64,000 nt of DNA from Planctomycetota bacterium (GTDB lineage: Bacteria > Planctomycetota > Planctomycetia > Pirellulales > UBA1268). The notes beneath the pieces are model-generated. The model saw only the letters and a program-made list of their open reading frames with translations. It was not told where the DNA came from and did not search any database. Of the stretch, positions 16,417-42,513 are shown in pieces (within the stretch, counting starts at the first letter, position 1; each line of letters begins with the position of its first letter). The translations under genes were made by a program, and so were the position numbers. The stretch spans positions 2,289 to 66,288 of the forward strand of contig JAGWWA010000004.1 of NCBI GenBank assembly GCA_018970605.1, given 5' to 3'.

Positions 16417-16417
16417 G

Positions 16418-17128: not shown

Positions 17129-17159
17129 CGTTCCCTCTCCTCGGCGCACGGTGGTTTCC

Positions 17160-17807: not shown

Positions 17808-18829
17808 GCGGCGGCGACGTCGAGGCCCTGCGTGCCACCCTCATCTCCTCCCCAGGCCTGTTTCCGCTGGACGTGAGCCCCGCTGGCGATGCCATGCTGT
17901 TCGTCTCTCTCACGGAAGACGACTACCGCGAGGCGAGCTTTCTGGATCGCCGCATCCTGCGGCCCGAGAGCCGCACCGGCGTGGTGCCCTGCGAGCTGAT
18001 GCGGCCGTGGCTGGCGCCGCTGCCGCGGAGTTGCGACTTCATCTTCCACGTGTCGCATGCCGGCTCCACGCTGCTCTCGCGGCTGCTCGGCTGCCACGAG
18101 GGCGTGTTTTCGCTTCGTGAGCCTGCGGCGCTGCGGTCGCTCGCCAGCGCCGCCGACACCACGGCCGACGGATTGCTCGACGACGTGCTGGGGCTCCTCT
18201 CGCGGACGTTCCGGCCCGGGCAGCGACCGGTCGTGAAGGCCACGAGCGTCGTGAACCAGATCGCCGGCCGGCTGATGGGCCAGATGACCAACGCCAGGGC
18301 CCTGCTGATGACGGTGCCGGCCGAGACCTTCCTCGCCGCGGTGCTCGACGGATCGCCCGGCGACATCGCGGCCCACGCCGCCGAGCGGTTGCTGCGGTTG
18401 CAACGGATGGGTGTGGCCACGGGCACCGAGTTGGGGAGTCTTGGCGCCGGCGAAGCGGCGGCGATGAGTTGGCTGTGCGAGAACCTCGCCCTGGCCGAGG
18501 TTGCCCACGACGTACCCAGCCGGGTTCACTGGCTTGACTTCGACCAGTTTCTGGGCGAGCCCGCCTTCCATCTTGCCGCCGCGTTTGCGTTCTTCGGCCT
18601 CGACGCGGACGTGGAGCCAATCCTCGCCGGCGACGTCATGCGGCGCTACGCGAAGCGGCCCGACGTCGCCTACGACGCAGATTTTCGCAGGCGGTTGCTC
18701 ACCGACGCCCGCAGCCGGATGGGCGGCGAGATTCAGGCCGGGCTCGACTGGCTCGCGTCGATCGGCGCGGAGAATCTGCTCGCGGGCACGCCGGCGACCC
18801 TCGTCGCAGCCCCGGTGAACCGTCACTGA
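17804..18829 (+). CDS. hypothetical protein, possibly sulfotransferase-like
   Basis: The GTG start overlaps the upstream stop (GTGA). FIFHVSHAGSTLLSRLLG resembles the PAPS 5'-phosphosulfate-binding loop (xRSGSTLL) of bacterial sulfotransferases. The function assignment is weak. Confidence 0.5.
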   Translation: MSGGDVEALRATLISSPGLFPLDVSPAGDAMLFVSLTEDDYREASFLDRRILRPESRTGVVPCELMRPWLAPLPRSCDFIFHVSHAGSTLLSRLLGCHEGVFSLREPAALRSLASAADTTADGLLDDVLGLLSRTFRPGQRPVVKATSVVNQIAGRLMGQMTNARALLMTVPAETFLAAVLDGSPGDIAAHAAERLLRLQRMGVATGTELGSLGAGEAAAMSWLCENLALAEVAHDVPSRVHWLDFDQFLGEPAFHLAAAFAFFGLDADVEPILAGDVMRRYAKRPDVAYDADFRRRLLTDARSRMGGEIQAGLDWLASIGAENLLAGTPATLVAAPVNRH

Positions 18830-27100: not shown

Positions 27101-29584
27101 CGTTGCGGTGTCGTCGATGCCCGCGTAGGGCACGCCCTCCTTCTCACCACGAACGACGATGTTGTCGATGGCCCACCACCAGTTGTTGTCGCCTTCGAAA
27201 TAGCCGAACTTGAACTTCATCTGGCCCGATGAAGGACTGTTGAGCGGGGCATCGACCGTAGCGCCCTGCACGTACTGACCCGCGGTGTTCGAAGCCGACA
27301 CCGTGATGTGGTTGTTGAGGGCACTGTTGGTGTTAGCGGCGTCGCCGAAGAAGAGCAGCGGCGACCAGGTCGCCCCATCGTCGTACGAGACCTCGACGGT
27401 GCCGTACTGCGGGAGTTCCTTGTTGTAGCTGGAGTCAAACTCGAGGGTCACAGTGCCGGGCGTGATGCCGGAGAGATCGATGGACTTCGTGATGAGGAGA
27501 CTGTTGAACCGACCCGCGGCGTGCGAGACGTCATCCCACTCGTCGGAGTCGGCCACGGCCACGGTGCCGGTGCCGAAGCTGAACCGACTGCGATCCTGAT
27601 CGCCGGCGGTCGTGATCCAAGAGTTCTTGTCGACGAACGTCCAGCCCTGGAAGTCGGACTGGCTGGCCGGCATCTGCGAGTTGTCCACCGTGAAGCCCGC
27701 CGGGAGCTCACGGGTAAAGTCGGTGCCGTCACCGCGCGGCTCGGTGACAAACGGGCCGAGGGGGAGACGATCGAACGTCTCGGTGAGCAGAACCGCGTTG
27801 CTGGTGAGCGTGCTGCTCGTGTCGAGGAAGGCACCGTCGTCGATCAGCAACGAGTAGCCGGTGAGGCCCTTGAGGTTGATCGGCGGGTCGATCGTGACGG
27901 TCGAGCCCGAGACGACGACGGCCGACGACTTGACATCGAGCGTGGCGCCGATCCAACCGGTGGCCGTCTCGACGATGTGGATGTTGCCGCTGCCCTTCTT
28001 CACCGTCGTGCCGAAGGTGAGGCTGAAGTTCGCCTTGTAGCCGACGCCGGTGGCGTTATCGGCCGGAGTGAGCGTGAGGACCTTCGGGCCCTCATCGTCG
28101 ACCACGTTGATCGAGGCCGTGCTCTGGGCGTAGACCACCGACGTGGCAGTGATCGTCACCTTTTGCGTCCGGTCGCTGAGGTTGTCGTCGACGGCCGTGA
28201 TGGGAAAGGTGACCGACGACTGGCCGTTCGGAATCAGCACCGTGGCCGGGACCGTAGCCTCGGTGGTGTCGCTGCTCGAGAGCGTGACCAGCACGTCGCC
28301 GACCGGCAGGTTGTTGCGAGAGACGGTCGCCGTGGCGGTGCCGCCGTTCTCGCTCATTGAACCGGGGTTGATTGCGAGGGTCAGCTTGGGCGACTCGGGC
28401 GTGGTGAAGTTCCAGAACGTGGCGTCGGAGAGGCCTGCATATTCGCCACCGACGATGTTCCCGGTGATCTTCATGTTGTCGACGCCCCACCACCAGTCGT
28501 TCGTGCCTTCCGTGTAGAAGCGGAACACGAGCGAGCCGCTGTTGGGGTTGACCACGGCACCGAAGGTGGCGCCGCCCTTGCCGTCGCCGCTCACGCCGGT
28601 CGAGGTGCCCGAGACGAGCCGCTCATTGATGCTCTTGTTGACGAAACTCGCGCTGCCGGCGGTGTTCGTGGTGTTGAACTCGTTGAGGGTCAAGAGAGTG
28701 GACCACGTGGTCCCGCCGTCGTAGCTCACATCGAGTTTGCCGGTCTGGGCCTCACCGGGGCCTTCAGGGCGGAAGCTCGAATCGAACTCGAGCTTCACCG
28801 AACCAGCCGCCACGCCCGTCAGATCAACGGGCTTGGTGGTGACATAGCTCTTGAACGCCCCGCCGTTGGGGGCGTCGTCGAACTCGTCGGTGTCGGCAAC
28901 CATGATGCCGCCCGAGGCAAGCGTGAACTGATCGCGGTTCTGGCCTTCGGGTGCACCGGCCTGTTTGATCCAGGAGTTCTTGTCGGCGGCCACCCAGCCC
29001 TTCCACTCCTCCTTGCCGCCGGTCGGCATCTCGCTGTTGTCAACGGTGAAACCGAGCGCTATGTTCGGGCTCCAGTCGGTGCCGTCGCCGCCTCCGTCGG
29101 TCACGAACGGCTGCAGGGGCGTGAAGTCGAAGTTCTGCTGGAGGAGCGTGGCACCGGTGGTTGGGGTCGACGAGGTGTCAATGAACGCGCCCTTGTCGAT
29201 GTACACCGAGTAGGTGTTGTCGAGTTCGAGGTCGGTCGGGAGGTCGACCGTCACCTGATTGCCGCTGACCGACACGTTCGCCGACCGCACATCCACTGCC
29301 ACGCCCGTCGTGCCCGTGCCCTGCCGGACGACGTAGATGTTGCCCTGGCCCTTGATCACGTTCTCGTTGAACGTGAACACCAGATCGCTGTTGAGCGGGA
29401 CGTTCGTCGAGCCGTCGAGCGGGGCAATGCCCGTCACCGAGAGCGCGAGCATGTTGCGGTTCTCAAACCGCTCCAGGCTGGAAAGCCCACCGAGCCGCCG
29501 GGGATGGCGGGCCTGGCGTGACTGAAACAGGCTCTTGAGGGCGGTCGCGAACGAGGCAGCGGTCGGGCGGCGGCGTAACGACAT
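24104..29584 (-). CDS. giant multi-domain surface protein (1826 aa): 3x [Ig-like + WWW-motif beta-sandwich + Calx-beta-like], lamin-tail domain, PATR beta-strand repeats, dockerin-like repeats
   Basis: Start at ATG 29584 (MSLRRRP...RRLGGLSSLERFENRNMLA). Three supermodules of about 437 aa ending NDWWWGVDNM / NNWWWAIDNI / NDWWWAIDNI. LTD motif VVISEIMYD...EWVELYN. PATR repeat GTGMLVLTGSNTHSGGTVVTAGTLVV. GDSNLDGSVDIGDL / GDFNHDGVVDQLDL. Confidence 0.85.
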   Translation of the reverse strand: MSLRRRPTAASFATALKSLFQSRQARHPRRLGGLSSLERFENRNMLALSVTGIAPLDGSTNVPLNSDLVFTFNENVIKGQGNIYVVRQGTGTTGVAVDVRSANVSVSGNQVTVDLPTDLELDNTYSVYIDKGAFIDTSSTPTTGATLLQQNFDFTPLQPFVTDGGGDGTDWSPNIALGFTVDNSEMPTGGKEEWKGWVAADKNSWIKQAGAPEGQNRDQFTLASGGIMVADTDEFDDAPNGGAFKSYVTTKPVDLTGVAAGSVKLEFDSSFRPEGPGEAQTGKLDVSYDGGTTWSTLLTLNEFNTTNTAGSASFVNKSINERLVSGTSTGVSGDGKGGATFGAVVNPNSGSLVFRFYTEGTNDWWWGVDNMKITGNIVGGEYAGLSDATFWNFTTPESPKLTLAINPGSMSENGGTATATVSRNNLPVGDVLVTLSSSDTTEATVPATVLIPNGQSSVTFPITAVDDNLSDRTQKVTITATSVVYAQSTASINVVDDEGPKVLTLTPADNATGVGYKANFSLTFGTTVKKGSGNIHIVETATGWIGATLDVKSSAVVVSGSTVTIDPPINLKGLTGYSLLIDDGAFLDTSSTLTSNAVLLTETFDRLPLGPFVTEPRGDGTDFTRELPAGFTVDNSQMPASQSDFQGWTFVDKNSWITTAGDQDRSRFSFGTGTVAVADSDEWDDVSHAAGRFNSLLITKSIDLSGITPGTVTLEFDSSYNKELPQYGTVEVSYDDGATWSPLLFFGDAANTNSALNNHITVSASNTAGQYVQGATVDAPLNSPSSGQMKFKFGYFEGDNNWWWAIDNIVVRGEKEGVPYAGIDDTATWSVTTAEAPTLTVTLTPASISENGGVATGTVTRNVAAGTSGALVVALASSDTTAATVPATVTIPDGQSSVTFSISGVDDLLSDGSQTSVITATATDFFSVSATVTVLDDDFPKPTNFSPADNATAVAVSANGVVTYDQAIKKGNGFIYIVRSSDNKAEKMIDINSAEVSISGSTLTINPVRDLVKLTDYYILIDNGAVLSASSFVTSGVQLLKQDFELLPLGPAVYETVGLQGGKEFTATPPGGWTTDNSAMPFGGAPEWRGWTFANKNFWTTEGGQSRANFTLGSGTVAVADTDEWDDYGYYPKNSFNAKLLSTPINLATVAASSVTLEFDSSFRPESGGSFTPYTPDNMQGFLDVSYDAGATWTNLLTLDSSNTLGSSTAANVNEHRTVSVQNPDDGTMVFRWTNTGTNDWWWAIDNIIVKGTVDGLPSPGISSPTTWNFTTADAATLTVTAAAAATEGDAPLTGTVTRNLGTVGDLVVTLASSDTGAATVPATVTIPNGQESVTFPITIVNDARYRGTRPVTFTATAASFVAGTTSVSIADNDVGEVVISEIMYDSSQSGSRDTATEWVELYNRGSSTADVGNWYFDDEDTIKWGAIPAGTTIPAGGVLVLYNNWVGTASEFRAAWNVPATAGVVGLVWGDLDNSPTRVNEMFVLKDASGTTRNTANFAEDGTVWPAYVAGSSHYLKNLTGDTDVGTNWRASVAGTDGALHPTSAVYNAADTGSPGRVGADGTIVDVPSGQTQTDSTVHSGAERIVKQGTGMLVLTGSNTHSGGTVVTAGTLVVKNLAALGSGALEVQAGAKVVLDVGTGTVDITSLVLATGGLLDFGAGKLTAQSGLNRTSILAAINAGKGDGSWNGIAGFTSTVVASTPARTLGWMDNGGSFTVGYAAPGDSNLDGSVDIGDLANFLGSGQLDAGTPADWISGDFNHDGVVDQLDLADLLGASLYDVGNYLPATEAPASASGSSVTPVEAAFAAFAAESQVGTGRKKSAFSLV
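25465..29443 (-). repeat. Three tandem coding repeats of about 1.31-1.36 kb inside the giant gene
   Basis: Module starts are near 29443, 28083 and 26765. The WWW landmarks near 28485, 27175 and 25860 give a period of about 1310 nt. Confidence 0.75.
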
Positions 29585-29761
29585 GAGAGACTCCCGGTTT
29601 CGCGTAGGGCGTTGGGTGAACGAAGACGAACAGGCGACGTTATGAACTTCTTCGATGAGGACATCACCAGAGTTCCGTGAGTTTTCGATGAAAATCTCGT
29701 AGCGGTCTGACAAGGGACATCGCCCGTTCGAGCTACCGAAGGGCTTTTTCGAGGGATCTGT

Positions 29762-31896: not shown

Positions 31897-31916
31897 TGTG
31901 AGAATCACGTGTGCCT
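31897..31916 (+). promoter_or_regulatory. GTGTGAGAATCACGTGTGCC element upstream of the PI-PLC-like gene
   Basis: Lies about 80 nt upstream of ATG 31995. It closely resembles 9639..9658 (GTGAGAATCTCGTGAGCG) and 58972..58989 (GTGAGGATCGTGTGCGG). The function is inferred only. Confidence 0.2.
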
Positions 31917-31994
31917 GCTTGCGGCTTGCGGACCTCGCGGTCTCATACGTCGCATGCTGCGGGTACGATCCGAACGCTTGCAGGAGAGAGGCCC

Positions 31995-32915
31995 ATGGTC
32001 GTCCGCTGGCTGCTGGTGCTTGTGATGGCTTTCGCGTGCGGGGCGACCGCACTCGGCGGCGACGACGTCTACGCCGACACGGGCCGCGATGCACTGGTCT
32101 CTCGGGTGAACTTCGCCGAACCGGAGCGGCCCTCCGCGCCAGGGGATGCCCCGCGTTTCCACGCGGCAGAGCCCGCTAACGCTCGGCCGGTGCCGCCTCA
32201 CGCCGGCCACGCCCACAACGACTACTGGCATGACCGACCGCTCCTCGACGCCCTCGAGCGAGGGTTTTGCAGCGTGGAGGCCGACGTGTTCCTGCGCGAC
32301 GGCGACCTGCTCGTCGGTCACGCCGTGGGCGAACTCCGGCCAGACCGCACGCTGGCCGCGGTCTATCTCGATCCGATCCGCGAACGCCTCGAGGCGAGCG
32401 GCTGCGTCGCGCACGAGGGTAGGCCCTTCTCGCTGCTCGTTGACATCAAGGCCGATGGGGCAGGGGCCTACAGGGTTCTCGCCGAGCAACTGAGGCCCCT
32501 GCGACGGTTTCTCGTCGGCGACGAGTCTCGCGCGGCGACGCTCCGCGTCATCGTCAGTGGCGACCGGCCCATCGACGCGATGGCAGCCGATGCAGAGCGG
32601 CTGGCCGGCGTCGACGGTCGGCTCGAGGACCTCGACCGTGACGACCGCCCGGCAACGCTGATGCCGCTCGTCAGCGACCGGTGGGGCACGCGGTTCACCT
32701 GGTACGGCGCCGGCCCCATGCCGGACGCTGAGCGGGCGGAACTCCGGCGGATCGTGAACCGGGCGCATGCCCGCGGTCAGGCCGTTCGCTTCTGGGCCAC
32801 GCCCGACAACGCGTCGTTCTGGGAGGAACTCTCCGCCGCGGGCGTCGATCTGATCAGCTGCGACGACCTTGACGCGTTCGTCGGCTTCGCGGCCAGCGCA
32901 GGGGAGCGGCCGTAG
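31995..32915 (+). CDS. Ca-dependent PI-PLC / glycerophosphodiesterase-like phosphodiesterase, secreted
   Basis: Start at ATG 31995 preceded by AGGAGAGAGG. Signal MVVRWLLVLVMAFACGATALG. HAHNDYWHDRPLLDALERGFCSVEADVFLRDGDLLVGH matches the PI-PLC-C1-type N-terminal motif (HNDY...EaD). Confidence 0.7.
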   Translation: MVVRWLLVLVMAFACGATALGGDDVYADTGRDALVSRVNFAEPERPSAPGDAPRFHAAEPANARPVPPHAGHAHNDYWHDRPLLDALERGFCSVEADVFLRDGDLLVGHAVGELRPDRTLAAVYLDPIRERLEASGCVAHEGRPFSLLVDIKADGAGAYRVLAEQLRPLRRFLVGDESRAATLRVIVSGDRPIDAMAADAERLAGVDGRLEDLDRDDRPATLMPLVSDRWGTRFTWYGAGPMPDAERAELRRIVNRAHARGQAVRFWATPDNASFWEELSAAGVDLISCDDLDAFVGFAASAGERP

Positions 32916-32937
32916 CCGCTGCCGCAGCCGACGGGGC

Positions 32938-33924
32938 TCATGGCTTCCCGAGCCGCGAGTCGAACCAAGTGGCGCACCGCATGATGTGCCAGGGCATCGT
33001 CAGCCAGCCGTGGCCGGCTCCCTCGACCACGGTGAGCGTCACGTCGCAGCCGAGGGTCTTCGCCCGGTCGCAAAAGCGGATGGACTGGTCGAGCGGAACG
33101 AGCGTGTCGCGATCGCCGTGGTGGATCAGAATCGGCGGAAGTTCGGACGTCACGTGAAAAATCGGGGAGAGTTCGCGGGACGTTTCCCGCCAGCGGGCCA
33201 TGTCGATCGGCTCCTGATCGAAAGCCTTGCGGAAGGAAGGGGGCGGGCCCCCGTCCCCCGGGTCCTCGGTCGATCCGGTCAGGTTGGTGAGGTCGGTGAC
33301 GGGGCAGAAGACGGCTGCCGCCTGCACCGCGCTCGAAACGTCCGCCAAGGGGTCGGCGGAGCCCGTCTCGCCGGGGCCGCCACGGGTGGCGAGCATGAGC
33401 GCGAGATGGCCGCCGGAACTGCCACCGGTGACGCCGATCCGGTCGGGATCGACACGAAACTCGGCGGCATGAGCGCGGACGTATCGCACCCCGCGGGAAA
33501 TGTCGGCGACGATCTCGTCCACGGTGGCGCGGGGCTGCGGCACATGAGCGACGGCGAACAACGTGTATCCGTGGCGCAGGAGGGGCGCCAGGAGCCAAGC
33601 GCGAAATGAGTTTGGGCTCGACTTCCATCCGCCGCTCACCAGGAACACGATGCCCAGCCCGTTGGGGGAGGGTGGCGTGACGACGTCGAGGGTGAGCGGC
33701 TCTCCCCGACGCTCGCCGTAGACGATGCCCCGCTGCCAGTCGCACGGGGGGTGGGCGTAGACCCAGGCGGCCGCCACGAGGCCCCCGGCAAGCAGGGCTG
33801 CCGCAAGGCAGATAACCAGCCCGGCCATCAGCCAGCGACGGAGCAGCGAGCGCCGTTGGGAACGCACCGGACTCGTGCATGCCCCGGTACCACACTCAAC
33901 GCCGTGGCTCGCGATGTCGACCAT
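32938..33924 (-). CDS. alpha/beta-hydrolase (esterase/lipase-like) with N-terminal membrane anchor
   Basis: Start at ATG 33924 preceded by GGAGAGGAGG. Anchor LMAGLVICLAAALLAGGLVAAAW. Nucleophile elbow GGSSGGHLAL, then HHGDRDTLVP and GAGHGW. Confidence 0.8.
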   Translation of the reverse strand: MVDIASHGVECGTGACTSPVRSQRRSLLRRWLMAGLVICLAAALLAGGLVAAAWVYAHPPCDWQRGIVYGERRGEPLTLDVVTPPSPNGLGIVFLVSGGWKSSPNSFRAWLLAPLLRHGYTLFAVAHVPQPRATVDEIVADISRGVRYVRAHAAEFRVDPDRIGVTGGSSGGHLALMLATRGGPGETGSADPLADVSSAVQAAAVFCPVTDLTNLTGSTEDPGDGGPPPSFRKAFDQEPIDMARWRETSRELSPIFHVTSELPPILIHHGDRDTLVPLDQSIRFCDRAKTLGCDVTLTVVEGAGHGWLTMPWHIMRCATWFDSRLGKP

Positions 33925-33991: not shown

Positions 33992-36298
33992 TCAGGTCTT
34001 TCGCCACATGCCCTCGAGTACCCGCAGAACGTCGATGGCACCGAGCCGCGGATCGAGTGCCGTGGTGGCGATGCCCGCCACCACGCGGGTGTGCTGGTGG
34101 TCGGTTGCATCGGCAACGGCCCACTCATCGCCGCGGCGACAGGTCACGTAGACGGAGAACGTTCGATGGCCGGTGCCGGGCCGCTCCCCCACCACGTGCA
34201 ACACCGCCCGCGGGCCGGAGAGCCCGCCGAACAGCCGCTCGCCAATCCGATAGCCGACGCGGACGCGGCCGGAGGTCACGAGCATCGCCCGCGGAGCGAG
34301 GCGGCGGCCAGCCGCGGCGACGCTGTCGTGCATCGCCGCCAGGAATGGGTCGAGTTGCGCAAGATCCATGATCGCCAGCGGATTGAGGCCGTCTGACACC
34401 ACCACCTGCACGTCGCAGCCCCCACGCTGCGCATCCCGCTCAGCATCGACGGCGGCCACCGACGCCTCCGCGAGCCGCTCGCCGGTGGTGGGATGGAGGA
34501 TGTAGTCTCGGCGGTCGGCCGACTCAGTGAACAGGGGGAGCGAACCCGCCTGCGACCGCCGGAAGGCATCGTCGAACTCCGCCCAGATGCTCTGCTTGGC
34601 GTCGGCGTAGATGCGGCGGATCGTGGTGTCGAGCGCCGGCTCCAGATCCTCCGGCCGACGACCGTGTCCCTCCGCGAGGAACACGCCCCGCTGCCGCACC
34701 TCCTTCATCTCGCGGCGGCCCTCCGCCCGGATGTCGTCATCGGTTCGGCGGTCGCCGACGGCCCGCTGATACTGCAGGTGCACCCAGCCGGGGTCACCAA
34801 AACGCGGTCCGGGGGCCCCCCCGGTGTCGAGGACCCCGAGCCGCTGGAAGAATCGCTCCATCCGCTCCTCGCCGCGGCAGCCAAACTGGCGGCGGAGCCG
34901 CACGTGGTCCTGAAAACCCGTGGTCAGGTAGCCGAGCATCGGATCGACCTTGGTGGGGAGGGCCATCAGGTACGCCGGCCGCGCGGGCAGCACCCGTTCC
35001 AGACACCAGTCGAGGTCGTCGAGCGAGACATCCATGTGGAGCGTGCCACAAACATCGAGGCCGATGCACAGTCCGTGCAGCTTGCCCATCACGAGATCCT
35101 CGAGGCAGCAGCGGACGAGTTGCTCTCGCGTGCGGAAGACCTCGGGCCCGATGAACCCCGCCACGTCGTTGACATGCACCCAGGGCTCGGCCCCACGGGC
35201 CCGCGCCACCCGGTGGGCCAACAGCCGCGCGAAGCCGTATTTCCGAGACTCATGCACCACCATGTCGACGCCCTGGGCGTGCCCATTGGTGAAGTCGGCT
35301 CCCTGCCCGGTCTCGAAATAAAGACCCCACGGCCCGCGGCGGGCATCGGCATGGCGAAGCATCTTGTCGAGCGTCAGGTCGAACGTGGCGTTGGCCGCGT
35401 CGCTACCCGCGATGCTCTGAAACCAGACGCCGGTCGTGCCGGGAGCGGCGGCGTCAACCTCGGCCTGGATGTCGATGTGCGAGAGCACGCAGTGGGGCAT
35501 TGTATCGGCAAGCCCAAAGGCCTCGAGCACGCCGCGCAGGGTGTCGGACACCGCCTTCACGCTCTCCGGCTCGCTCGACACCGGATTGGTTCCGAGCACC
35601 ACGTCGCCCACCCCGTAGGCCCAGCCATCAAAGACCTGCCAGCGAATGTCCAAGGGATTGTCGGTTGGGGAGTTGGGCTGAAGACGTGCGGCGAGGCATC
35701 CGCGGCTGCCGATCCGCGTGCCGGGGAGCGGATTGAAGATCGTGTCGCCCACGCGGACGAGTTGCTCGTCGTCCATCATCCGCACGACGCAGGCAATCAC
35801 GTCGCTGGAAAGACCGGGCATGATCGCCTTGATGTCGGCCTCGGGCCGAGTGAGCAGGAAGGCGGCGAGTTCACCGACCGTCCATTCCGCCGTCCGCTCC
35901 CGAGCCGCCGGGTCGAGATCGGCCGCAAGCGCGGCGGACAGCCCGTCGGAGAAAGGGGGGTGCGAGTCGATGTCCCGCAGCCGCGTCCGCCCGAGCAGTT
36001 CGCGGGCCGCCTGCCGCGCCGCCTCGTTCGGGGCGGCGACGCCGATCAGTTCGTCGCCCTCCTTGAACGCGTTTGCATGGCCCAGGAGCTGCGTGAAGAG
36101 CCGCTGATCCCATCCCCCCGAGAGCCGCGCGACGTGACCGATCAGGTCGTCGAGGGCCGCGACCTCGGCCATGGAGGAACGGATCGAGGCGGCGGCAACT
36201 CCGGAGAGAAACATGCGTCGACTTATGCCATCCATGACGGGTTGAGGAGTCCGTGGGGTGCGATGCGGCGTGTCGCTGAGGGGCGGTCTGGGAACCAT
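33992..36298 (-). CDS. eutBC: fused ethanolamine ammonia-lyase large+small subunit (EutB-EutC) with twin-arginine-like leader
   Basis: EutB pattern (GDELIGVAA, VLGTNPVSSEP, YFETGQGADFTNGH, NDVAGFIGPEVF), continuing in frame into the EutC pattern (VVVSDGLNPLA, HVVGERPGTG). Start chosen at ATG 36298 (GGAGAAG 5 nt upstream). Alternatives are 36235 and 36172. The leader contains SRRMFLSGVAAASIRSSMA. Confidence 0.85.
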   Translation of the reverse strand: MVPRPPLSDTPHRTPRTPQPVMDGISRRMFLSGVAAASIRSSMAEVAALDDLIGHVARLSGGWDQRLFTQLLGHANAFKEGDELIGVAAPNEAARQAARELLGRTRLRDIDSHPPFSDGLSAALAADLDPAARERTAEWTVGELAAFLLTRPEADIKAIMPGLSSDVIACVVRMMDDEQLVRVGDTIFNPLPGTRIGSRGCLAARLQPNSPTDNPLDIRWQVFDGWAYGVGDVVLGTNPVSSEPESVKAVSDTLRGVLEAFGLADTMPHCVLSHIDIQAEVDAAAPGTTGVWFQSIAGSDAANATFDLTLDKMLRHADARRGPWGLYFETGQGADFTNGHAQGVDMVVHESRKYGFARLLAHRVARARGAEPWVHVNDVAGFIGPEVFRTREQLVRCCLEDLVMGKLHGLCIGLDVCGTLHMDVSLDDLDWCLERVLPARPAYLMALPTKVDPMLGYLTTGFQDHVRLRRQFGCRGEERMERFFQRLGVLDTGGAPGPRFGDPGWVHLQYQRAVGDRRTDDDIRAEGRREMKEVRQRGVFLAEGHGRRPEDLEPALDTTIRRIYADAKQSIWAEFDDAFRRSQAGSLPLFTESADRRDYILHPTTGERLAEASVAAVDAERDAQRGGCDVQVVVSDGLNPLAIMDLAQLDPFLAAMHDSVAAAGRRLAPRAMLVTSGRVRVGYRIGERLFGGLSGPRAVLHVVGERPGTGHRTFSVYVTCRRGDEWAVADATDHQHTRVVAGIATTALDPRLGAIDVLRVLEGMWRKT

Positions 36299-36350
36299 GG
36301 TACTTCTCCGAGAGCGGTGTTCGGTAGTCGTTGGGTCATGAGCGATCTTC

Positions 36351-38540
36351 TCAGTCGTCAGCGAGGAACCCGTGGTACCTCCCCATGTGCCAGGGGAGGA
36401 GGAAGACCGTGCCACTGGCGAGTTCGCGACCGTCGCCTCCTTGGTCGAAGCACCACGGGTCGACATTCCAGTGGGCGAAGTTCCGCTCGTCGACGGGGAG
36501 CACCTTCCCGTCGACACCGTGGCCGCGCGGCACGTGGTCGGGGCGACCTGGATCGATCGACTGGGCCGCCGCCAGCCGCACGAGATCGAGCCGGTGGGCG
36601 TTGGTATGACGCCACTGGCAACGGTCGAGGGGGAGGAGCACCAGGGCATCGATCGAGTCATCGAGCCAGTCGGCCCCGCCCAGCGCATCCGGGGCCGACG
36701 GATCGAAGGGGCCGTCCGCCCCCGCCTCCCGCGCAGCCGCCGCGAAGGCGAAGTGAAAGAAGGGATTCCGCTCCGGACGCTCGAGGAGCCAGCAACGGTG
36801 GAAGGCGCCGAGGTAGGCCCGCCGCAGGCCGGGATCGGACGTGTAGCGAACGAGATGGTAGAGATTCATGAACGCCATCTCGTCGTCCGACTGGTTGCCG
36901 GAACCAATGCCGAGCTGAAACTTCAATGAGAGGGCATTGGCGTCGTAGGCATGGTCGCGACGGAGGGCCTCCGCGGCCGCCTCGTAGCGATCATCGCCGG
37001 TGACGTGTGCGGCGATCGCGAGGTAGGCGAGGATGCTCATTGAGTTGAGCCCGCGTTCCACCTCCCAACGCCGGTCGTGATTGAGCGCGGCGGGAGAATA
37101 CTCACCCCACCGAGTGACGCGGCCGTCGTGGTCGACGAGGCGGAAGCCATGGCCGACGAGGTGATCGGTGAGCCTGGCCACGGCCGTGCACACCGCACGC
37201 TTTTCCTCGCCCGACTCGGCGACGTGATCGTGATACAGGGCGAAGAAGAAGTAGTGGCCGTCGAGTTCGTCGGAACTCGTGTCGGCCTTCCACCACCAGC
37301 GGCCGTCGGCCGACTTCGGCCAGCGGGGCTCAAGCATCTTCCAGTGTGGGTCAGTCTCACGTGACTGACCGTCGCGGGCCTCTTGGCCGATGTTCGGGTC
37401 GGGCCCGTCGCCGGGGAGGACGGTCCGAGCCGGAAAGCCGAGGGACGGAGCGTGCTCGCCCCCCTGCGTCACATCCTGGAGGAACGTCAGCGCCCGCAAG
37501 ACCCGGTCGGCCCGGCGTTTCGCATCAGCCGAGCGGTCGTGGGCGTAGGCGAAGCACTGCGCCGCGCCATACATCGCCGTCCACAGCCCGTCGTTGTCGC
37601 TGTCGATGCGGCGCGCCGTCGAGGTGTCGCCCGGAACGGTGAGATCGGCCGTGGCCACGAATCCGTGCTCGGTGCGGGAGATCGACTCGTCGATGATCGC
37701 TTCGTAGTGCCTTGACTTGTCGGCGAGCGTCATTGGCCGTGCCGTGATCCAGCCAACGCCGCCGTCGGTGGCGACGACGACATCGCCGTTGGCCGCGACG
37801 GCAAGGTCGTGGACGACATCGCCAGGCAGCCAGCCGGGGCCCTGCCGGTAGCGAAAGCGGGTGCCCGACCACTCAACCGCACCGATCTTCGACCCGAACC
37901 ACACCGTGCCGTCGGGGGCCGACGCCACGACAGAGAAATCGGCCACCGGCAGCCCTTCGGCGCCGGTGAAAAACTCCCAGTCGTCTCCGTCGCGCCGCGC
38001 GACGCCCGCCGGCGTGGCAACCACGAGCCGACCGTTCGTGTCGTAGGCCACTCCGCGAGTGTCGCCCACCCCCCACACCAGTCCCCGCTCGTCAAGGGGC
38101 GCAAGACGCTGCCATGATCCACCCGCGACCCGCTCGAACAATCCTTCCGAAGTGGCCGCCGCTACAGTGCCGTCGCTGCATCGGGCGAGCTGGCGGACAT
38201 CCGCTCCCGGTGCGAGCAGGGGCACCCGCTCACCGCCGTCGCGGGGGGGAGCCGCGACGGAAGCCGACGCAAACCGGCCGGAGACCAGACGGAACGTTGT
38301 CGTGCCGTCGCCGACGTGAACGTCGCCGTCGTTTCCGATCCATGTTCGCCGGGGGAGGAAACCGGGCGGAAGTCCGGGGGGCAGGTTTCGATGCTCGGGC
38401 ACAAGTTGCACGAACCGGCCGACGCGACGCGGTGCCGCCGTTTCGACGCCACCCGCATTGGTGGGCACGGCCACCACGACCATTGTCAGCAATCGTGCGA
38501 GCCACGTGGCTGACACCTTTTTTCGATGGAGTCGGTTCAT
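36351..38540 (-). CDS. hypothetical secreted/anchored protein: beta-propeller-like N-half, helical (possibly alpha/alpha-toroid) C-half
   Basis: The ATG 38540 overlaps the MFS stop (ATGA). N-terminal anchor ATWLARLLTMVVVAVP. Repeated GxVxxAT/DG..W blades, and a Trp/His-rich C-half (RWWWKADTSSDELDGHYFFFALYHD). I recognise no family. Confidence 0.65.
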   Translation of the reverse strand: MNRLHRKKVSATWLARLLTMVVVAVPTNAGGVETAAPRRVGRFVQLVPEHRNLPPGLPPGFLPRRTWIGNDGDVHVGDGTTTFRLVSGRFASASVAAPPRDGGERVPLLAPGADVRQLARCSDGTVAAATSEGLFERVAGGSWQRLAPLDERGLVWGVGDTRGVAYDTNGRLVVATPAGVARRDGDDWEFFTGAEGLPVADFSVVASAPDGTVWFGSKIGAVEWSGTRFRYRQGPGWLPGDVVHDLAVAANGDVVVATDGGVGWITARPMTLADKSRHYEAIIDESISRTEHGFVATADLTVPGDTSTARRIDSDNDGLWTAMYGAAQCFAYAHDRSADAKRRADRVLRALTFLQDVTQGGEHAPSLGFPARTVLPGDGPDPNIGQEARDGQSRETDPHWKMLEPRWPKSADGRWWWKADTSSDELDGHYFFFALYHDHVAESGEEKRAVCTAVARLTDHLVGHGFRLVDHDGRVTRWGEYSPAALNHDRRWEVERGLNSMSILAYLAIAAHVTGDDRYEAAAEALRRDHAYDANALSLKFQLGIGSGNQSDDEMAFMNLYHLVRYTSDPGLRRAYLGAFHRCWLLERPERNPFFHFAFAAAAREAGADGPFDPSAPDALGGADWLDDSIDALVLLPLDRCQWRHTNAHRLDLVRLAAAQSIDPGRPDHVPRGHGVDGKVLPVDERNFAHWNVDPWCFDQGGDGRELASGTVFLLPWHMGRYHGFLADD

Positions 38541-39859
38541 GGGCGACGCGCCTGCGGCGGCAGTCGGTTCCAGAGCGGCGCGACGGCCGCTCCGGCGAAC
38601 ACGAGCCCGACGGCGAGCACGAGGAAGATCGTGTTCCAGGGCGTCTGGCCGTCGGCAGTTGTCGAGGCCACGAGGCCCGGGAGTGTGCCGCCGATGACGC
38701 CACCGAGCGAGCCGCAGCCATTGATCATGCCGGCCGCCGTCGCGGCGCCCCGTCGCGTGCCGAAGTCGATTGCCGCCGCGCCGCTGGCGAGCGAGTCGGG
38801 GATGTAGACGAGCAGGCCGATCACGAACAGCATCGCCCCCACCGCCCACCGCGTCGGCGGCATCCAGGGCAGGGCGGCCAGCGCGACGCCGGCCGCCACG
38901 AGCGTGACCGCCATCACGGGAAACCGCCGCGTGCCGAACAGCCGGTCACTCGCCCAGCCACCTGCGATGATCCCCACGGGGCCGGCCAAGTCGAAGAGCC
39001 CGCCAAGGATGCCGCTCTCGGCGACTCCCGTGCCAAGCCGCTCGCTCAGATACACGGGCGACCAGAACATGAGCAGATAGCGGAGCGGCTTGACGAGGAG
39101 ATAGACGAACGAGATCACCAGCACCGTCGGCGACGTCACGACGTCCAGAATCGTCCGCCACGCCCCCTCCGGCTCGTCGGCGACCCGCTCACCCTCGACG
39201 ATCACCGACTCGGCTTCGCCCGCTGCCTGCTCCGGCGATGGGAGCCCCACGTCCTCCGGCCTGTCGGCCTGCAGAATCGCAAACGCCACGCAGATGGCCG
39301 CGAGGATGCCCGCCGGCACGAAGAAGGCCATCCGCCAGCCACCGTGCTCCGCGGCCAGGCCCGCCACGACGCCCGCGATCATCCCGCCGAGCGCGAAGTT
39401 CGTGCACCACAGCCCCATCACTCGGCCCCGCACCCACCTCGGAAAAAACTCCCCCATGTTCTTCGTGAGCGGCGCCCAGCCACTCGACTGGAACACACCC
39501 TGGAGCGCAAAGAGCACACCGAGCCACGCGGCCGTCGCGGCGGAGCCCATGGCGACGGCCACCGCCACGCTCCCCGCCATACCCGCAAGGACGACCCGGC
39601 GAGTTCCAACCCGGTCGCCAAGCACGCCCCAGAGAAACTGCCCAGCCGCGTAGGCGATGAGATACCCGCCATCGACGGCGGCGAGCGTCTCCGTCGAGAG
39701 CCCCCACACCTCGGGCTTCTTGAGTTCGATCTTCGCCACCGACAAGCTTTTTCGCGTCAGGTAGAAGCCGGCGTAGGCAAGCCACGTGATCGCGAAAATG
39801 CGAATTTGCCAGGCCTTCAGCGAGGTCGTCCGGCCGCGGCGCAGCACCTCGCTCGTCAT
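38537..39859 (-). CDS. MFS transporter, organophosphate:Pi antiporter (GlpT/UhpC) type
   Basis: The ATG 39859 overlaps the ADH stop (ATGA). WQIRIFAITWLAYAGFYLTRKSLSVAK, GDRVGTRR, QGVFQSSGWAPLTKNMGEFFP are typical OPA-family motifs. About 12 TM segments. Confidence 0.87.
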   Translation of the reverse strand: MTSEVLRRGRTTSLKAWQIRIFAITWLAYAGFYLTRKSLSVAKIELKKPEVWGLSTETLAAVDGGYLIAYAAGQFLWGVLGDRVGTRRVVLAGMAGSVAVAVAMGSAATAAWLGVLFALQGVFQSSGWAPLTKNMGEFFPRWVRGRVMGLWCTNFALGGMIAGVVAGLAAEHGGWRMAFFVPAGILAAICVAFAILQADRPEDVGLPSPEQAAGEAESVIVEGERVADEPEGAWRTILDVVTSPTVLVISFVYLLVKPLRYLLMFWSPVYLSERLGTGVAESGILGGLFDLAGPVGIIAGGWASDRLFGTRRFPVMAVTLVAAGVALAALPWMPPTRWAVGAMLFVIGLLVYIPDSLASGAAAIDFGTRRGAATAAGMINGCGSLGGVIGGTLPGLVASTTADGQTPWNTIFLVLAVGLVFAGAAVAPLWNRLPPQARRP

Positions 39860-40971
39860 GGCGTCACGACTACGCGGACGGCGGTGCCGGCGGCCGCCAT
39901 GACCAGCGCCTCGTCGATCGCATCGAGCGGCATCACAGGACCGACGAGTGAGGCAAGGCCGGCGCCCGCCGGCGAAGCGAGATGGCTGACGGCCGCAGCA
40001 AGATCTTCGGGCCGGTAGTTGTGGACGCCACGGATCGTCGCCTGCCGACGAACAATCCGCTCGGGATCGCAGGCCGCGCTTCCGACCGGCGCCACCGTGC
40101 CCGCGAGCACGCACGTGCCACCGGTGGCGATCAGTCGCATCGCGGCCTCGACCGTCGCGACCGAGCCCCCCGCGTCAACCACCACATCGGCGCCGTCGGC
40201 CACAAGCATGCCCGTCACGAGATGCTCGAGCCCGGCCTCGTTGCCCGACCAGGGCACTGTGTTCGCCTGCGGCGCGGCCGCGGCCAGAAGGTCGAGTCGC
40301 TCCGGCCTGGAATCGACGACAGTCACCGAGGCCGCACCGCGTGCCGTTGCCAGACTCGCAACCGATAGGCCAAGCATTCCCGCGCCGAGCACGACCACGG
40401 ACCGACCGTGGAGATCTCCGGCGACCCGAAGCGCAGCCGCCGCGGTCGCCACGGCGCAGCTCGCGGGCGCAGCCGCGACGGCCGTGAGTCCAGCCGGCAG
40501 CCGCACGATCGCCGTGCCGGGCCGCAGCACCACATGACTGGCAAAGCCGCCCGCCAGGGAATGCTCGTCGTTCGCCGCATGGCCATACTTGAAGAGCTGC
40601 CGGCACTTCTGCGGCAGGCCTCCGCGGCAGCGGTCGCACTCGCCGCATGAGGCACACACGCTCCAGGTGATCTGCTGGCCGGCCGTGATGGTCTCCCCGA
40701 CGACGTCCACGACGTCGGGTCCGGCCCCGACCGCAACGACGGTGCCCGTGATCTCGTGGCCGAGGATTGCCGGCAGCGGGTGCGGCCGTCGGCCATGGGC
40801 CGTATGCAGATCGCTGCCGCAGACCGCGCAGGCGTCAATGCGCACGAGCACTTCCCGTTCGCCGAGCGGCGGCACCGGCACATCGCGCAGTTCCAGCGAA
40901 CCACCGGGCCGCGTCAGCAGGGCGACACGCGCCGTCGCCACCGCTCGTTCAGCCGTCTCAAGCATCCGCAT
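39856..40971 (-). CDS. Zn-dependent alcohol dehydrogenase (MDR), phosphonate-catabolism-associated type
   Basis: Start at ATG 40971 (MRMLETAE). CAVCGSDLH, GHEITG, structural-zinc Cys cluster CASCGECDRCRGG, Rossmann VVVLGAGMLG. The context matches the ADH family that co-occurs with phnX (TIGR03366-like). Confidence 0.83.
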   Translation of the reverse strand: MRMLETAERAVATARVALLTRPGGSLELRDVPVPPLGEREVLVRIDACAVCGSDLHTAHGRRPHPLPAILGHEITGTVVAVGAGPDVVDVVGETITAGQQITWSVCASCGECDRCRGGLPQKCRQLFKYGHAANDEHSLAGGFASHVVLRPGTAIVRLPAGLTAVAAAPASCAVATAAAALRVAGDLHGRSVVVLGAGMLGLSVASLATARGAASVTVVDSRPERLDLLAAAAPQANTVPWSGNEAGLEHLVTGMLVADGADVVVDAGGSVATVEAAMRLIATGGTCVLAGTVAPVGSAACDPERIVRRQATIRGVHNYRPEDLAAAVSHLASPAGAGLASLVGPVMPLDAIDEALVMAAAGTAVRVVVTP

Positions 40972-41012
40972 GGTCTCCCTGCCGCAATCGTCCGTCGTGC
41001 GAGCGATCACCA

Positions 41013-41038
41013 CGCACCGACGGCATTATGTCGGTGCG
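41013..41038. promoter_or_regulatory. Perfect 9-bp inverted repeat CGCACCGAC-N8-GTCGGTGCG in the divergent promoter region
   Basis: Seen directly. It lies between the ADH-MFS operon start (40971) and the PhnZ-like/phnX operon start (41140). The operator role is an inference. Confidence 0.3.
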
Positions 41039-41139
41039 CCGATTGCTTCCAGCGACGCTCATGGAAAACTGACATTCCGCCCCTGGGCGGCTCGCTACAC
41101 TCGCCGACTCACGGCCGGCCAACTCTCGGAAGCTGAAGC

Positions 41140-41721
41140 ATGACCACGAACACGGACGATCCGGTGGCGGCGATTATGAGGCTGTTCGCGGAGAAGGGCG
41201 ACTCAGAATACGGCGGCGAGTCGGTGAACCAGCGGGAGCACGCCCTCCAGGCGGCAACCTGCGCGCTTCGCGACGGCGCCGACGACCCGCTCGTCGTGGC
41301 CGCACTACTCCACGACCTCGGCCACATGCTCCACGACCTGCCCGACGACGCTCCGGAGGAGGGCATCGACGACGCCCACGAAGTGACCGCCGCCCGGAAA
41401 CTCGCTCCGTGGTTCGACACCGACGTCACGGAGCCCGTTCGGCTCCATGTCGATGCCAAGCGGTATCTCACCGGCACGGAGCCGGCGTACATGGAGCAAC
41501 TGAGCCCGCCGAGCGTCACGAGCCTGATGCTGCAGGGCGGCCCGATGGACGCCGCGGCCCAGGAGGAGTTTCGCCGCAATCCCCACTGGGAGGCGGCGGT
41601 ACGACTCCGACGCTGGGACGACGAAGCGAAAGTGGAGGGGGCGGAGACGCCGACCGTTGACGAGTTCATCCCGCTCATCCGCGGCGTCGTCCGGCCGGAG
41701 TTTCGCGGGGCCTCCACCTGA
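41140..41721 (+). CDS. HD-domain protein of the phosphonate-degradation-associated (PhnZ-like) type
   Basis: GESVNQREHALQAATCA...VVAALLHDLGHML (H...HD) and later DAKRYL / RRWDDEAK match the HD family linked to phosphonate operons (TIGR03276-like). Confidence 0.72.
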   Translation: MTTNTDDPVAAIMRLFAEKGDSEYGGESVNQREHALQAATCALRDGADDPLVVAALLHDLGHMLHDLPDDAPEEGIDDAHEVTAARKLAPWFDTDVTEPVRLHVDAKRYLTGTEPAYMEQLSPPSVTSLMLQGGPMDAAAQEEFRRNPHWEAAVRLRRWDDEAKVEGAETPTVDEFIPLIRGVVRPEFRGAST

Positions 41722-41724
41722 GCC

Positions 41725-42513
41725 ATGACGACGCCCATCCGCCTCGTCGTCGCCGATCTCGCGGGCACCACGATCGACTTTGGCTCGTGTGCCCCGGCCG
41801 GTGTATTCGTCGATCTCTTGGCCCGCCATGGCGTGGCGATCACCGCCGCGGAGGCCCGCGGCCCGATGGGCACGGCCAAGCGGGACCACATCGCGGCCCT
41901 CGCGGCTCTGCCTCGGGTGGCAGCCGCCTGGGCGACGGCCCACGGGCGGCCCTTCACTGAGGCGGATCTCGACGAACTCTACGCTGAGTTCATTCCGCTC
42001 CAACTTGCCTCGCTTCCCGCGTTCGACGCCCTGATCCCGGGCACGCTCGAGGCGGTCGCGGTGTTGCGGCAGGCGGGCCTCGCCGTCGCCGTCACGACCG
42101 GATACGACGCTGCCATGACGGCGGTGGTGCTGGAGGGCTGCCGGCGGCAGGGCTTTCTTCCGGACGCGGCCGTCTGCGCCACCGAGGTCGCGGCGGGACG
42201 TCCAGCGCCCTGGATGATCTTCCGAGCGATGGAGAAGACTGGGATCTGGCCGCCGTCAGCGGTCGTCGCCGTGGGCGACACGCTGGCCGACGTCGAGGCC
42301 GCCCGGAATGCCGGGGTCTGGGCGGTCGGAGTCACCGCGACCGGCAACATGCTCGGGCTCTCGCGGGCGGAACACGACGCGCTCGAGCCCGGCCGCCGGG
42401 CCGACCTGCTCATCGCGGCCGCGGAGCGAATGCTTGCCGCCGGTGCGCATGCGACGATCTCCGGCATTGGCGATCTGACTGCACTGCTGCCGCGCCTCGG
42501 GGACGTGCCGTGA
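41725..42513 (+). CDS. phnX: phosphonoacetaldehyde hydrolase (phosphonatase)
   Basis: HAD motif I with the PhnX signature VVADLAGTTIDFGSCAP, GPMGTAKRDHI (catalytic Lys region), TTGY, VGDTLADVEAARNAGVWAVGV. Confidence 0.9.
   Translation: MTTPIRLVVADLAGTTIDFGSCAPAGVFVDLLARHGVAITAAEARGPMGTAKRDHIAALAALPRVAAAWATAHGRPFTEADLDELYAEFIPLQLASLPAFDALIPGTLEAVAVLRQAGLAVAVTTGYDAAMTAVVLEGCRRQGFLPDAAVCATEVAAGRPAPWMIFRAMEKTGIWPPSAVVAVGDTLADVEAARNAGVWAVGVTATGNMLGLSRAEHDALEPGRRADLLIAAAERMLAAGAHATISGIGDLTALLPRLGDVP

Follow-up and report, generated by a model that had tools for sequence, protein, structure and literature searches.

We analysed a gene on the minus strand of the window, the whole 64,000-nucleotide stretch of DNA presented here, and found that its product is likely an ethanolamine ammonia-lyase, adenosylcobalamin-dependent and in one chain, that is synthesised with a Tat signal peptide and resides in the periplasm, free of a microcompartment. 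Ethanolamine ammonia-lyase is the hallmark of the Eut microcompartment and a classic case of an adenosylcobalamin radical enzyme, and all characterised examples are, to our knowledge, cytoplasmic. Because the leader conserved on the fusion is an export signal for folded proteins, the enzyme probably works outside the cytoplasm. The evidence comes from the domain architecture and predicted fold of the protein, the layout of its N-terminus, the recurrence of that layout across a large family, and the surroundings of the gene.

Both ethanolamine ammonia-lyase domains lie in one open reading frame

The complete open reading frame, from first ATG to stop, spans 33992..36298 on the minus strand and encodes 768 aa plus a stop codon, one residue fewer than the 769 aa originally counted. 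Large and small subunits had been proposed to share one polypeptide, and this is the case: both Pfam domains occur in the single frame instead of in two separately encoded subunits. EutB (PF06751) covers residues 69-494 (E = 3e-127, 425 bits against a cut-off of 25), and EutC (PF05985) covers residues 560-766 (E = 1e-27, 97.3 bits against a cut-off of 25.8). The large-subunit domain, including its N-terminal helix, lies at 34817..36166 and the small-subunit domain at 34001..34621, both on the minus strand. Between the two Pfam domains lies a linker (34622..34816, minus strand), helical in the structural model, that takes the place of EutB's free C-terminus and of the N-terminal region of EutC, where enteric EutC has its microcompartment-targeting peptide. 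The NCBIfam EutB subfamily model scored slightly under its cut-off (547.2 versus 554), and the EutC equivalog reached 76.5 against a cut-off of 230, which marks the EutC domain as divergent. Homologue searches returned the same single-chain architecture in more than 230 proteins.

An AlphaFold2 model of the fusion had a pLDDT of 86.8, with residues 1-30 forming a detached, low-confidence helix. Foldseek matched the EutB part to 3abo_A (TM 0.87) and the EutC part to 3abo_B and 7xrm_B (TM 0.71-0.75), such that the predicted fold matches E. coli ethanolamine ammonia-lyase. Residues R205, Q207, N238, E329 and D415 align with R160, Q162, N193, E287 and D362 of E. coli EutB, which we take from E. 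coli structural work to be the substrate-binding residues. Their equivalents were invariant in an alignment of 37 diverse homologues (A2). Judging from these alignments, the substrate-binding residues of the fusion are intact.

An exported enzyme could conceivably act on another small vicinal amino alcohol, such as 2-amino-1-propanol or an amine derived from head groups or phosphonates, and we regard this as quite improbable. Such a substrate would be compatible with the clade being just ~32% identical to E. coli EutB, with an NCBIfam EutB score just under its cut-off and an EutC score far under, and with the phosphonate catabolism cluster that adjoins the gene in the window. However, all five ethanolamine-binding residues are invariant, and the phosphonate neighbours are not kept even in a relative with 87% identity.

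The N-terminus has the layout of a twin-arginine leader

The fusion begins with MDGISRRMFLSGVAAASIRSSMA|E, and the leader as first quoted, MVPRPPLSDTPHRTPRTPQPVMDGISRRMFLSGVAAASIRSSMA|EVAALDDLIGHVARL, is an exact match to the translated frame. By its sequence, this N-terminus has the n-, h- and c-parts of a Tat leader. The twin-arginine motif S-R-R-M-F-L-S occupies 36203..36223 on the minus strand (RR at 36215..36220) and corresponds to residues 26-32, or to residues 5-11 if counted from M22. A hydrophobic stretch and an SMA site had been noted after the arginine pair, and both were recovered when we read the sequence as an h-region of 11 uncharged, moderately hydrophobic residues (MFLSGVAAASI, 36182..36214, minus strand) followed by RSSMA|E. 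The c-region, R-S-S-M-A (36167..36181, minus strand), combines a basic residue with a small-x-small site. We infer that signal peptidase would cut after A44 (36167|36166). Neither a Cys nor a lipobox of the form [LVI][ASTG][GAS]C is present in the window leader.

Translation of the window in six frames gives 128,000 residues, among which the pattern [ST]RRxF[LIVM] occurred only twice, once at this position; its chance of falling in a given 50-residue N-terminus is ~1 in 1000 or lower. The single match of the window leader to a Tat model was to formate_TAT and was not significant (E = 0.13). Given an h-region of just 11 residues and no significant Tat-HMM match, the window protein's own leader is a weak instance of its type.

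Residue 18 of E. coli EutB aligns with residue 69 of the fusion, and the N-terminal extension consequently measures ~51 aa from the ATG at 36298 or ~30 aa from the ATG at 36235, shorter than the 60 aa or so initially estimated. The second of these start codons, the ATG of M22 (36233..36235, minus strand), agrees with the orthologues, most of which carry the RR 2-6 residues past their start. Seven nt upstream of the first ATG is a GGAG (36306..36309, minus strand) that, as read from the sequence, may be a ribosome-binding site. Upstream of this ATG, the sequence shares 98.9% identity with a 99% relative, L004. The Pro-rich stretch of 21 codons between the two ATGs (36236..36298, minus strand) is 84% identical to L004, with 3 amino-acid changes in 21 codons, versus 98% for the rest of the gene, and it is missing in more distant orthologues. 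The stretch is either an unconstrained n-region extension or 5' UTR.

The enzyme might instead keep an uncleaved Tat-type leader or signal anchor and stay attached to the inner membrane on its periplasmic side, which we consider unlikely. The short h-region of the window protein would suit this arrangement, its SMA site is a by-eye reading, the Myxococcota versions are clearly membrane-tethered by lipid, and the ethanolamine ammonia-lyase of Acinetobacter baumannii sits at the membrane (PMC9426561). Yet close orthologues keep AAA, ASA or ARA after the basic residue, as cleaved Tat leaders do, and 11 uncharged residues are too short for a stable membrane helix. We favour a cleaved leader for the window protein.

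The original prediction had also offered the amphipathic segment EVAALDDLIGHVARL as a helix that targets the enzyme to a microcompartment or other internal compartment. Enteric EutC is indeed encapsulated via an N-terminal helix (PMC9426561), but here EutC begins in the middle of the chain. In E. coli EutB, the place of the segment is taken by the first ~17 residues, before the local alignment begins. Across the family, the segment is conserved along with the domain, following the pattern (E/D)DL..YV.R, and it is modelled inside the fold with pLDDT above 90. It is better described as the start of the EutB fold. Neither the window frames scanned nor the 84 related loci clustered yielded a shell gene, and the protein has neither the linker-separated N-terminal peptide nor the nearby shell genes of Eut microcompartment cargo. 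Compartment targeting is accordingly very improbable.

The leader is conserved across the family

If the window leader is weak on its own, its relatives make a stronger case. An RR followed by an uncharged stretch of at least 12 residues was present in 98 of the 120 homologues listed in a first search, and an RR with an uncharged stretch in 98 of the 117 listed in a second. Reading raw DNA, we recovered an in-frame leader in 71 of 79 species-level genome loci. Among 115 orthologue N-termini, 36 matched Pfam TAT_signal (PF10518), 48 matched TIGR01409, and 25 matched formate_TAT. The two arginines and the phenylalanine were at least 90% conserved in alignment A2, with the surrounding leader residues varying freely, and the motif consensus over 120 homologues was [LM][DSN]RRxF[LFIV]. 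Most relatives down to ~55% identity keep the RR, the next F and the hydrophobic stretch, which upholds the initial reading of SRRMFLSG as a Tat consensus.

The leader also varies in ways that are informative about its role. RR together with a lipobox occurs in copies from Myxococcus, Pyxidicoccus, Archangium, Anaeromyxobacter and Haliangium (e.g., HRRTVLAAMLGGAAASLLGC). The lipobox was found in 14 Myxococcus and Pyxidicoccus proteins, as well as in loci L012, L022, L024, L035, L036, L040, L046, L054 and L061. As judged from these sequences, a lipobox cysteine in the Myxococcota copies would make sense only for an exported protein. One Riflebacteria copy has a Sec-type leader in place of the Tat leader. 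Leaderless fusions exist as well, namely second paralogues in Archangium and Vitiosangium, some Syntrophales proteins, and the fusions of Sphingomonadaceae, where the motif looks decayed. The neighbours of the second Archangium paralogue were, by eye, Nudix-like, acyltransferase, epimerase and alpha/beta hydrolase genes, with no eut genes among them. At least one seemingly leaderless homologue, that of Gimesia fumaroli, is a gene-call artefact, with a GTG-started leader (VQWNRRDFVQ...) upstream of the annotated start. In L022 and L036, the leader was likewise found upstream on following the reading frame.

These observations bear on whether the protein is cytoplasmic after all, with the RR segment being a vestigial or chaperone-binding remnant, or being left untranslated ahead of a true start downstream. 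We consider this unlikely. It is true that leaderless fusions occur within the same clade, that the window leader falls below Tat HMM thresholds, and that an exported adenosylcobalamin enzyme is without precedent in the literature searched. Against this, the full n-h-c layout, beyond RR alone, is conserved in frame across five lineages (Planctomycetota, Myxococcota, Syntrophales, Verrucomicrobiota and Gammaproteobacteria), and the lipobox and Sec-type variants are sensible solely for exported proteins. A start at the equivalent of M43 (36172) had been named as the observation that would count against a leader; orthologues do not start there, and most have no Met at that position.

Export is the reading we prefer. 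The fused clade is represented in several hundred species or more, drawn from Planctomycetota, Myxococcota, Syntrophales, Verrucomicrobiota and some Proteobacteria. Extending export from the window protein to this whole clade, such that these enzymes would be Tat-exported with cofactor pre-bound and active in the periplasm, strikes us as an evenly balanced proposition.

The fused gene is solitary

We scanned the window with Pfam and NCBIfam across the clearly coding open reading frames of 1-16.6, 18.8-23, 24-55.6 and 59.8-64 kb. No eutA, eutT, eutH, eutE or shell genes were found in the frames scanned, in agreement with the original prediction that eutA, eutT and shell genes are not nearby. 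A tblastn search with PduA against the whole window gave a best match of E = 0.87. Tat genes do not occur within the window, and no riboswitch turned up either there or in six related loci.

Among the neighbours of the fused gene are an esterase whose N-terminus has a membrane or signal segment, a GDPD-like protein, PLC-type phosphoesterases, an MFS transporter of the organophosphate family, and a phosphonatase cluster. Only the 87% relative, L006, shares the genes downstream, which are those for the esterase, the GDPD-like protein and AhpC/cytochrome c, and it lacks an equivalent of the 832-aa gene upstream. Of the families that the clustering of 84 related loci showed to be shared, none consisted of MFS or phosphonate genes. 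Hence, any functional link to the phosphonate cluster or the MFS transporter is a local suggestion only.

In every lineage examined, the fused gene was solitary. Clustering frames of at least 90 aa from the 84 loci revealed no conserved partner gene. Families that did recur nearby were DUF1501 (13 loci), PSCyt/PSD1 (8 loci), and a family in 11 loci that we read as sulfatases from one member's sequence. All three are hugely expanded in Planctomycetota and were taken as chance neighbours. We considered an operon in the Syntrophales and Pyxidicoccus neighbourhoods and rejected it, as the gene stands alone there amid housekeeping genes.

A proposed model for ethanolamine cleavage in the periplasm

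In the mechanism we propose, the fusion would fold in the cytoplasm, with the cofactor probably bound between the fused EutB and EutC domains, and would be carried across the inner membrane by Tat in one piece. Fusing the subunits would let a single signal peptide carry the entire cofactor-binding unit. The window protein would be released by signal peptidase I after SMA, and the Myxococcota forms would instead be lipid-anchored via the lipobox cysteine. Ethanolamine, possibly from phospholipid head groups freed by periplasmic esterases and phosphodiesterases, would then be converted to ammonia and acetaldehyde in the periplasm. This toxic, volatile aldehyde would arise outside the cytoplasm, without a microcompartment, ethanolamine permease or EutA reactivase. 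The source of the substrate and the fate of the acetaldehyde are guesses, since no partner gene is conserved next to the fusion. Two considerations count against export: the canonical enzyme assembles into a large alpha6-beta6 complex, and we know of no ATP for reactivation and no adenosylcobalamin supply in the periplasm.

If true, no adenosylcobalamin radical enzyme would have been known outside the cytoplasm before this one. It would imply that Tat carries an adenosylcobalamin holoenzyme, or that cofactor loading happens outside the cytoplasm, and that the enzyme runs without ATP-dependent reactivation. Bacteria would then cope with acetaldehyde toxicity in a second and simpler way, namely to make the aldehyde outside the cytoplasm, with the periplasm (or the membrane surface for lipoprotein forms) replacing the Eut microcompartment in its containment. 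It would also prompt a rethink of the ways in which environmental Planctomycetota, predatory myxobacteria and syntrophs obtain nitrogen from the lipids of membranes. Carriers of the fusion include cultured and partly tractable genera (Myxococcus, Pyxidicoccus, Archangium, Gimesia and Tautonia), which makes the idea directly testable.

Comparison with known systems

A literature search found no paper linking ethanolamine ammonia-lyase to Tat export, and no adenosylcobalamin eliminase or mutase was reported outside the cytoplasm in the literature searched. Export of an adenosylcobalamin enzyme had originally been called unprecedented, which stands in that literature with the qualification that corrinoid reductive dehalogenases are Tat substrates. 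Like other Tat-exported cofactor enzymes, which carry an S/T-R-R-x-F-L-type leader and bind a complex cofactor and fold before export, these dehalogenases show by precedent that a corrinoid can cross via Tat. Their chemistry differs, being cob(I)alamin and Fe-S redox chemistry with no adenosyl radical.

EutB and EutC of E. coli and Salmonella (PDB 3ABO) have the same two folds and the same substrate-binding residues, and presumably share the adenosylcobalamin radical chemistry. In contrast to that pair, the protein described here is one polypeptide, diverges in sequence to the extent given above, carries a Tat leader on its EutB end, lacks an EutC encapsulation peptide, and is encoded without an eut operon, EutA, EutT or shell genes nearby. 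Pelobacter carbinolicus has already been reported to possess EutBC fusions (Pcar_0491 and Pcar_0467), in a paper that does not mention a signal peptide. Those genes lie in a large cluster with cobalamin biosynthesis, binding-protein and membrane-protein genes, and their products were absent among the best 120 matches of our second homologue search. The A. baumannii enzyme supports growth without a metabolosome, EutA or EutE, which makes a stand-alone enzyme plausible (PMC9426561). It serves chiefly to supply nitrogen and is located at the cell membrane (PMC9426561). Unlike the fusion, it consists of two separate subunits, has not been reported to carry a signal peptide, and is co-transcribed with eutH and an aldehyde dehydrogenase gene.

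The fused lyase

The ethanolamine ammonia-lyase (EAL) gene lies on the minus strand, from ATG 36298 to a stop codon at 33992..33994. EutB and EutC are encoded as a single polypeptide, as originally predicted, although the product is 768 aa rather than 769 aa long. Pfam places the EutB domain at residues 69-494 (E 3e-127) and the EutC domain at residues 560-766 (E 1e-27). NCBIfam scores agree with this identity and mark the lyase as divergent: the EutB subfamily model gives 547 bits (cut-off 554) and the EutC equivalog 76.5 (cut-off 230). An AlphaFold2 model of the fusion (mean pLDDT 86.8, pTM 0.85) superposes on E. coli EutB (3abo_A) with a TM of 0.87 and agrees with the EutC structures 3abo_B and 7xrm_B at 0.71-0.75, whereas diol and glycerol dehydratases matched more weakly. 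Residues R160, Q162, N193, E287 and D362 of E. coli EutB, which bind the substrate (structural work of Shibata and Toraya), map to R205, Q207, N238, E329 and D415, and all five are invariant across 37 homologues of 59-87% identity. The fused enzyme thus looks functional, with an intact active site.

Extent and conservation of the leader

The lyase ORF opens with MVPRPPLSDTPHRTPRTPQPV-MDGISRRMFLSGVAAASIRSSMA-EVAALDDLIGHVARL, exactly as first quoted. The original prediction read this region as an extension of about 60 aa carrying a twin-arginine (Tat) leader, with an amphipathic compartment-targeting helix as the alternative. Alignment pairs residue 18 of E. coli EutB with lyase residue 69, so residue 1 would fall near lyase residue 52; residue 16 of Listeria EutB pairs with residue 66. 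The amphipathic EVAALDDLIGHVARL segment follows a family-wide pattern, (E/D)DL..YV.R..G.WD, and is modelled by AlphaFold2 as a helix with pLDDT >90 inside the EutB fold, while the 30 residues ahead of it form a detached helix of low confidence. Conservation and model both indicate that EVAALDDLIGHVARL begins the EutB domain, which led us to reject the compartment-targeting helix. The extra sequence is then the leader alone, about 23 residues counted from M22 (ATG 36235) or 44 from the first ATG.

Across the six reading frames of the window (128,000 residues), the motif [ST]RRxF[LIVM] occurs just twice, one occurrence being the lyase leader. Taken by itself, this leader is a weak instance of a Tat signal: its hydrophobic h-region spans 11 residues, and its sole match to a Tat model is formate_TAT at E 0.13. 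Relatives at 84-87% share the layout (MSRRMFLAGVATAAASPTRAAA and MSRRLFLAGVATAAVSPSRASA).

Support for a Tat leader comes from the family as a whole. A first homologue search returned more than 5000 matches, the best 120 of which were nearly all EutB-EutC fusions of 720-790 aa. Among these 120, 98 have an RR pair with a run of 12 or more uncharged residues starting no more than six residues after it; the pair usually lies 2-6 residues past the called start, and the leader consensus is [LM][DSN]-R-R-x-F-[LFIV]. A second search with a Smithella copy as query recovered the leader in 98 of 117 homologues, and raw DNA, read independently of gene calls, contained an in-frame RR leader at 71 of 79 species-level genome loci. 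Curated Tat models matched many of 115 orthologue N-termini (PF10518, 36; TIGR01409, 48; formate_TAT, 25). Inside the leader, conservation of at least 90% in the full-length alignment is limited to R, R and F amid variable surroundings, the signature expected of a targeting signal. These comparisons argue for a leader conserved far beyond chance and support the predicted Tat reading, from which we infer export.

For at least one homologue, the apparent lack of a leader results from a misplaced gene start. The deposited start in Gimesia fumaroli (L002, CP037452; MMGAPFALTL...) falls within the signal peptide, and an in-frame GTG about 75 nt 5' of position 10001 yields the leader VQWNRRDFVQAMMGAPFALTLSLTQT (VQWNRRDFVQAMMGAPFALTLSL), which matches MQWNRRDFVQAMLGGPFALTLSL of locus L016. 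In at least this genome, public annotation hides the leader. At two other loci (L022 and L036), a leader likewise comes to light when the reading frame is traced upstream.

Choice of start codon

The sequence GGAG lies seven bases 5' of ATG 36298. Compared with Planctomycetota bacterium ZE-3NOV15-plancto6 (L004, a 99% relative), identity is 98.9% in the DNA 5' of this ATG and 98.0% in the mature coding sequence. The intervening 63 bases between ATGs (36236..36298) are 84% identical, with 3 amino-acid changes in 21 codons, forming a local divergence hot spot between near-identical contigs whose flanks agree at 98-99%. More distant orthologues have no counterpart of this stretch, and most start just ahead of the RR. 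M22 marks where the conserved leader begins; with translation from 36298, the additional residues are an unconstrained n-region extension. A Tat-type leader results from either start. A start at M43 (ATG 36172), the case weighed against a leader in the original prediction, is untenable because orthologues mostly lack Met there.

Lipobox, Sec-type and leaderless forms

The RR leaders of Myxococcota end in a lipobox cysteine, as in Archangium (MRRRTFMKSVMLGGSALALASC), Myxococcus vastator (HRRAVLTAMVGGAAVSVLGC), Pyxidicoccus isolates (HRRTVLAAMLGGAAASLLGC), Anaeromyxobacter (LAAGC) and Haliangium (VLGC). Because a protein that stays in the cytoplasm has no use for a lipobox, the motif counts as an independent sign of export. 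A Candidatus Riflebacteria MAG (L059) has a Sec-type leader, MRMENSRFSGTLVLPVLALGLLLQPGFSQ, upstream of position 10001 in place of the Tat type; if real, it would imply that the protein is exported unfolded and acquires its cofactor outside the cytoplasm. Fusions lacking a leader also occur: Archangium and Vitiosangium have one as a second paralogue, several Syntrophales proteins are of this kind, and Sphingomonadaceae copies have a motif that looks decayed. Their presence alongside leader-bearing relatives suggests that the export signal is a switchable feature of the fusion clade.

The second paralogue in Archangium and Vitiosangium (MAESLTHPLEE...; L053, L057, L068, L079) sits in a conserved block that, by eye, holds genes of the Nudix, acyltransferase, epimerase and alpha/beta-hydrolase types. 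Both this form and the lipoprotein form, which is predicted to be exported, occur together in at least one Archangium MAG, SMAG_U3264 (L046, L079).

Genomic neighbourhood

Consistent with the earlier observation that eutA, eutT and shell genes are missing nearby, none of these, nor eutH or eutE, was found among the clearly coding ORFs scanned in the window; the best PduA tblastn match had an E of 0.87, and no Rfam riboswitch was found in the window. Immediately 5' of the lyase on the same strand is an 832-aa ORF (36351..38849) with an N-terminus that is Sec-like by eye (MNRLHRKKVSATWLARLLTMVVVAV) and zero Pfam or NCBIfam matches; among the loci fetched, only the window and L004 share it. Further 5' on the minus strand are an organophosphate-family MFS transporter (38537..40114) and an HpnZ-type phosphonate-associated alcohol dehydrogenase (39856..41013; TIGR03366, 313 bits), and divergent on the plus strand are a PhnZ-like HD oxygenase (41140..41721), the phosphonoacetaldehyde hydrolase PhnX (phosphonatase; 41725..42513, 304 bits) and a DAO-type flavoprotein (42510..43655). 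The interval 38537..43655 is a phosphonate catabolism cluster, and acetaldehyde is also a product of PhnX.

Downstream (31911..33924) are an esterase/lipase (BD-FAE/Abhydrolase_3), whose N-terminus SQRRSLLRRWLMAGLVICLAAALLAGG has RR pairs and a long hydrophobic (membrane or signal) segment, and a GDPD-like protein (weak GDPD_2). Both are syntenic with the lyase in an 87% relative (L006) and in no other relative. Phosphoesterases are unusually plentiful in the window (8035..20769 and 61275..62252): two large beta-propeller proteins with PLC-type Phosphoesterase domains (PF04185; 9673..12351, plus; 13717..16566, minus) flank a class-III aminotransferase, and two metallophosphoesterases and a canonical GDPD lie within these intervals. 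Together these genes point to an island for scavenging phosphorus and head groups. The lyase neighbourhood has the look of such a scavenging region, where ethanolamine would arise as a by-product. The window also encodes an IS110-family transposase (21918..23075, plus) and two giant surface-type proteins on the minus strand, of 1869 aa (24104..29713; Big_5, LTD and PATR domains) and 3682 aa (44555..55603; PATR repeats, a G8 domain and a PEP-CTERM end).

The association of scavenging genes with the lyase is local only. ORF clustering over 84 loci yielded no conserved partner gene, and the lyase gene is stand-alone in all lineages examined, lying among unrelated genes in Gimesia, a Pirellulaceae MAG, Syntrophales and Pyxidicoccus.

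Proposed mechanism and comparison with known systems

We consider it fairly probable that this is a fused EAL exported by Tat and active in the periplasm. The fusion, in which the EutB-EutC interface lies within one chain, would fold in the cytoplasm, probably with adenosylcobalamin bound at that interface. Tat would then export the folded protein, with cleavage after SMA, or lipidation instead in the Myxococcota forms. Ethanolamine would be deaminated in the periplasm, with ammonia taken up and acetaldehyde formed outside the cytoplasm. Subunit fusion is plausible as an export adaptation because a single leader then suffices for the entire cofactor-binding unit. The finding bears on B12 enzymes, microcompartments and Tat, and is directly testable since carriers are in culture.

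Export of an adenosylcobalamin enzyme was originally called unprecedented. Full-text literature searching found no report of an exported EAL or exported adenosylcobalamin enzyme, and we know of no precedent for an extracytoplasmic radical enzyme that uses adenosylcobalamin, but passage of a corrinoid by Tat does have precedent because corrinoid reductive dehalogenases are Tat substrates. A stand-alone EAL is credible given that the membrane-located enzyme of Acinetobacter baumannii sustains growth in the absence of a metabolosome, EutA and EutE (PMC9426561). Pelobacter carbinolicus grows on ethanolamine without eutA and has an EutBC fusion described as "unusual", in a report that leaves a signal peptide on its fused proteins unmentioned (PMC3543383). 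Hence, the fusion itself was already known, and we regard the lyase as a known enzyme in a new form.
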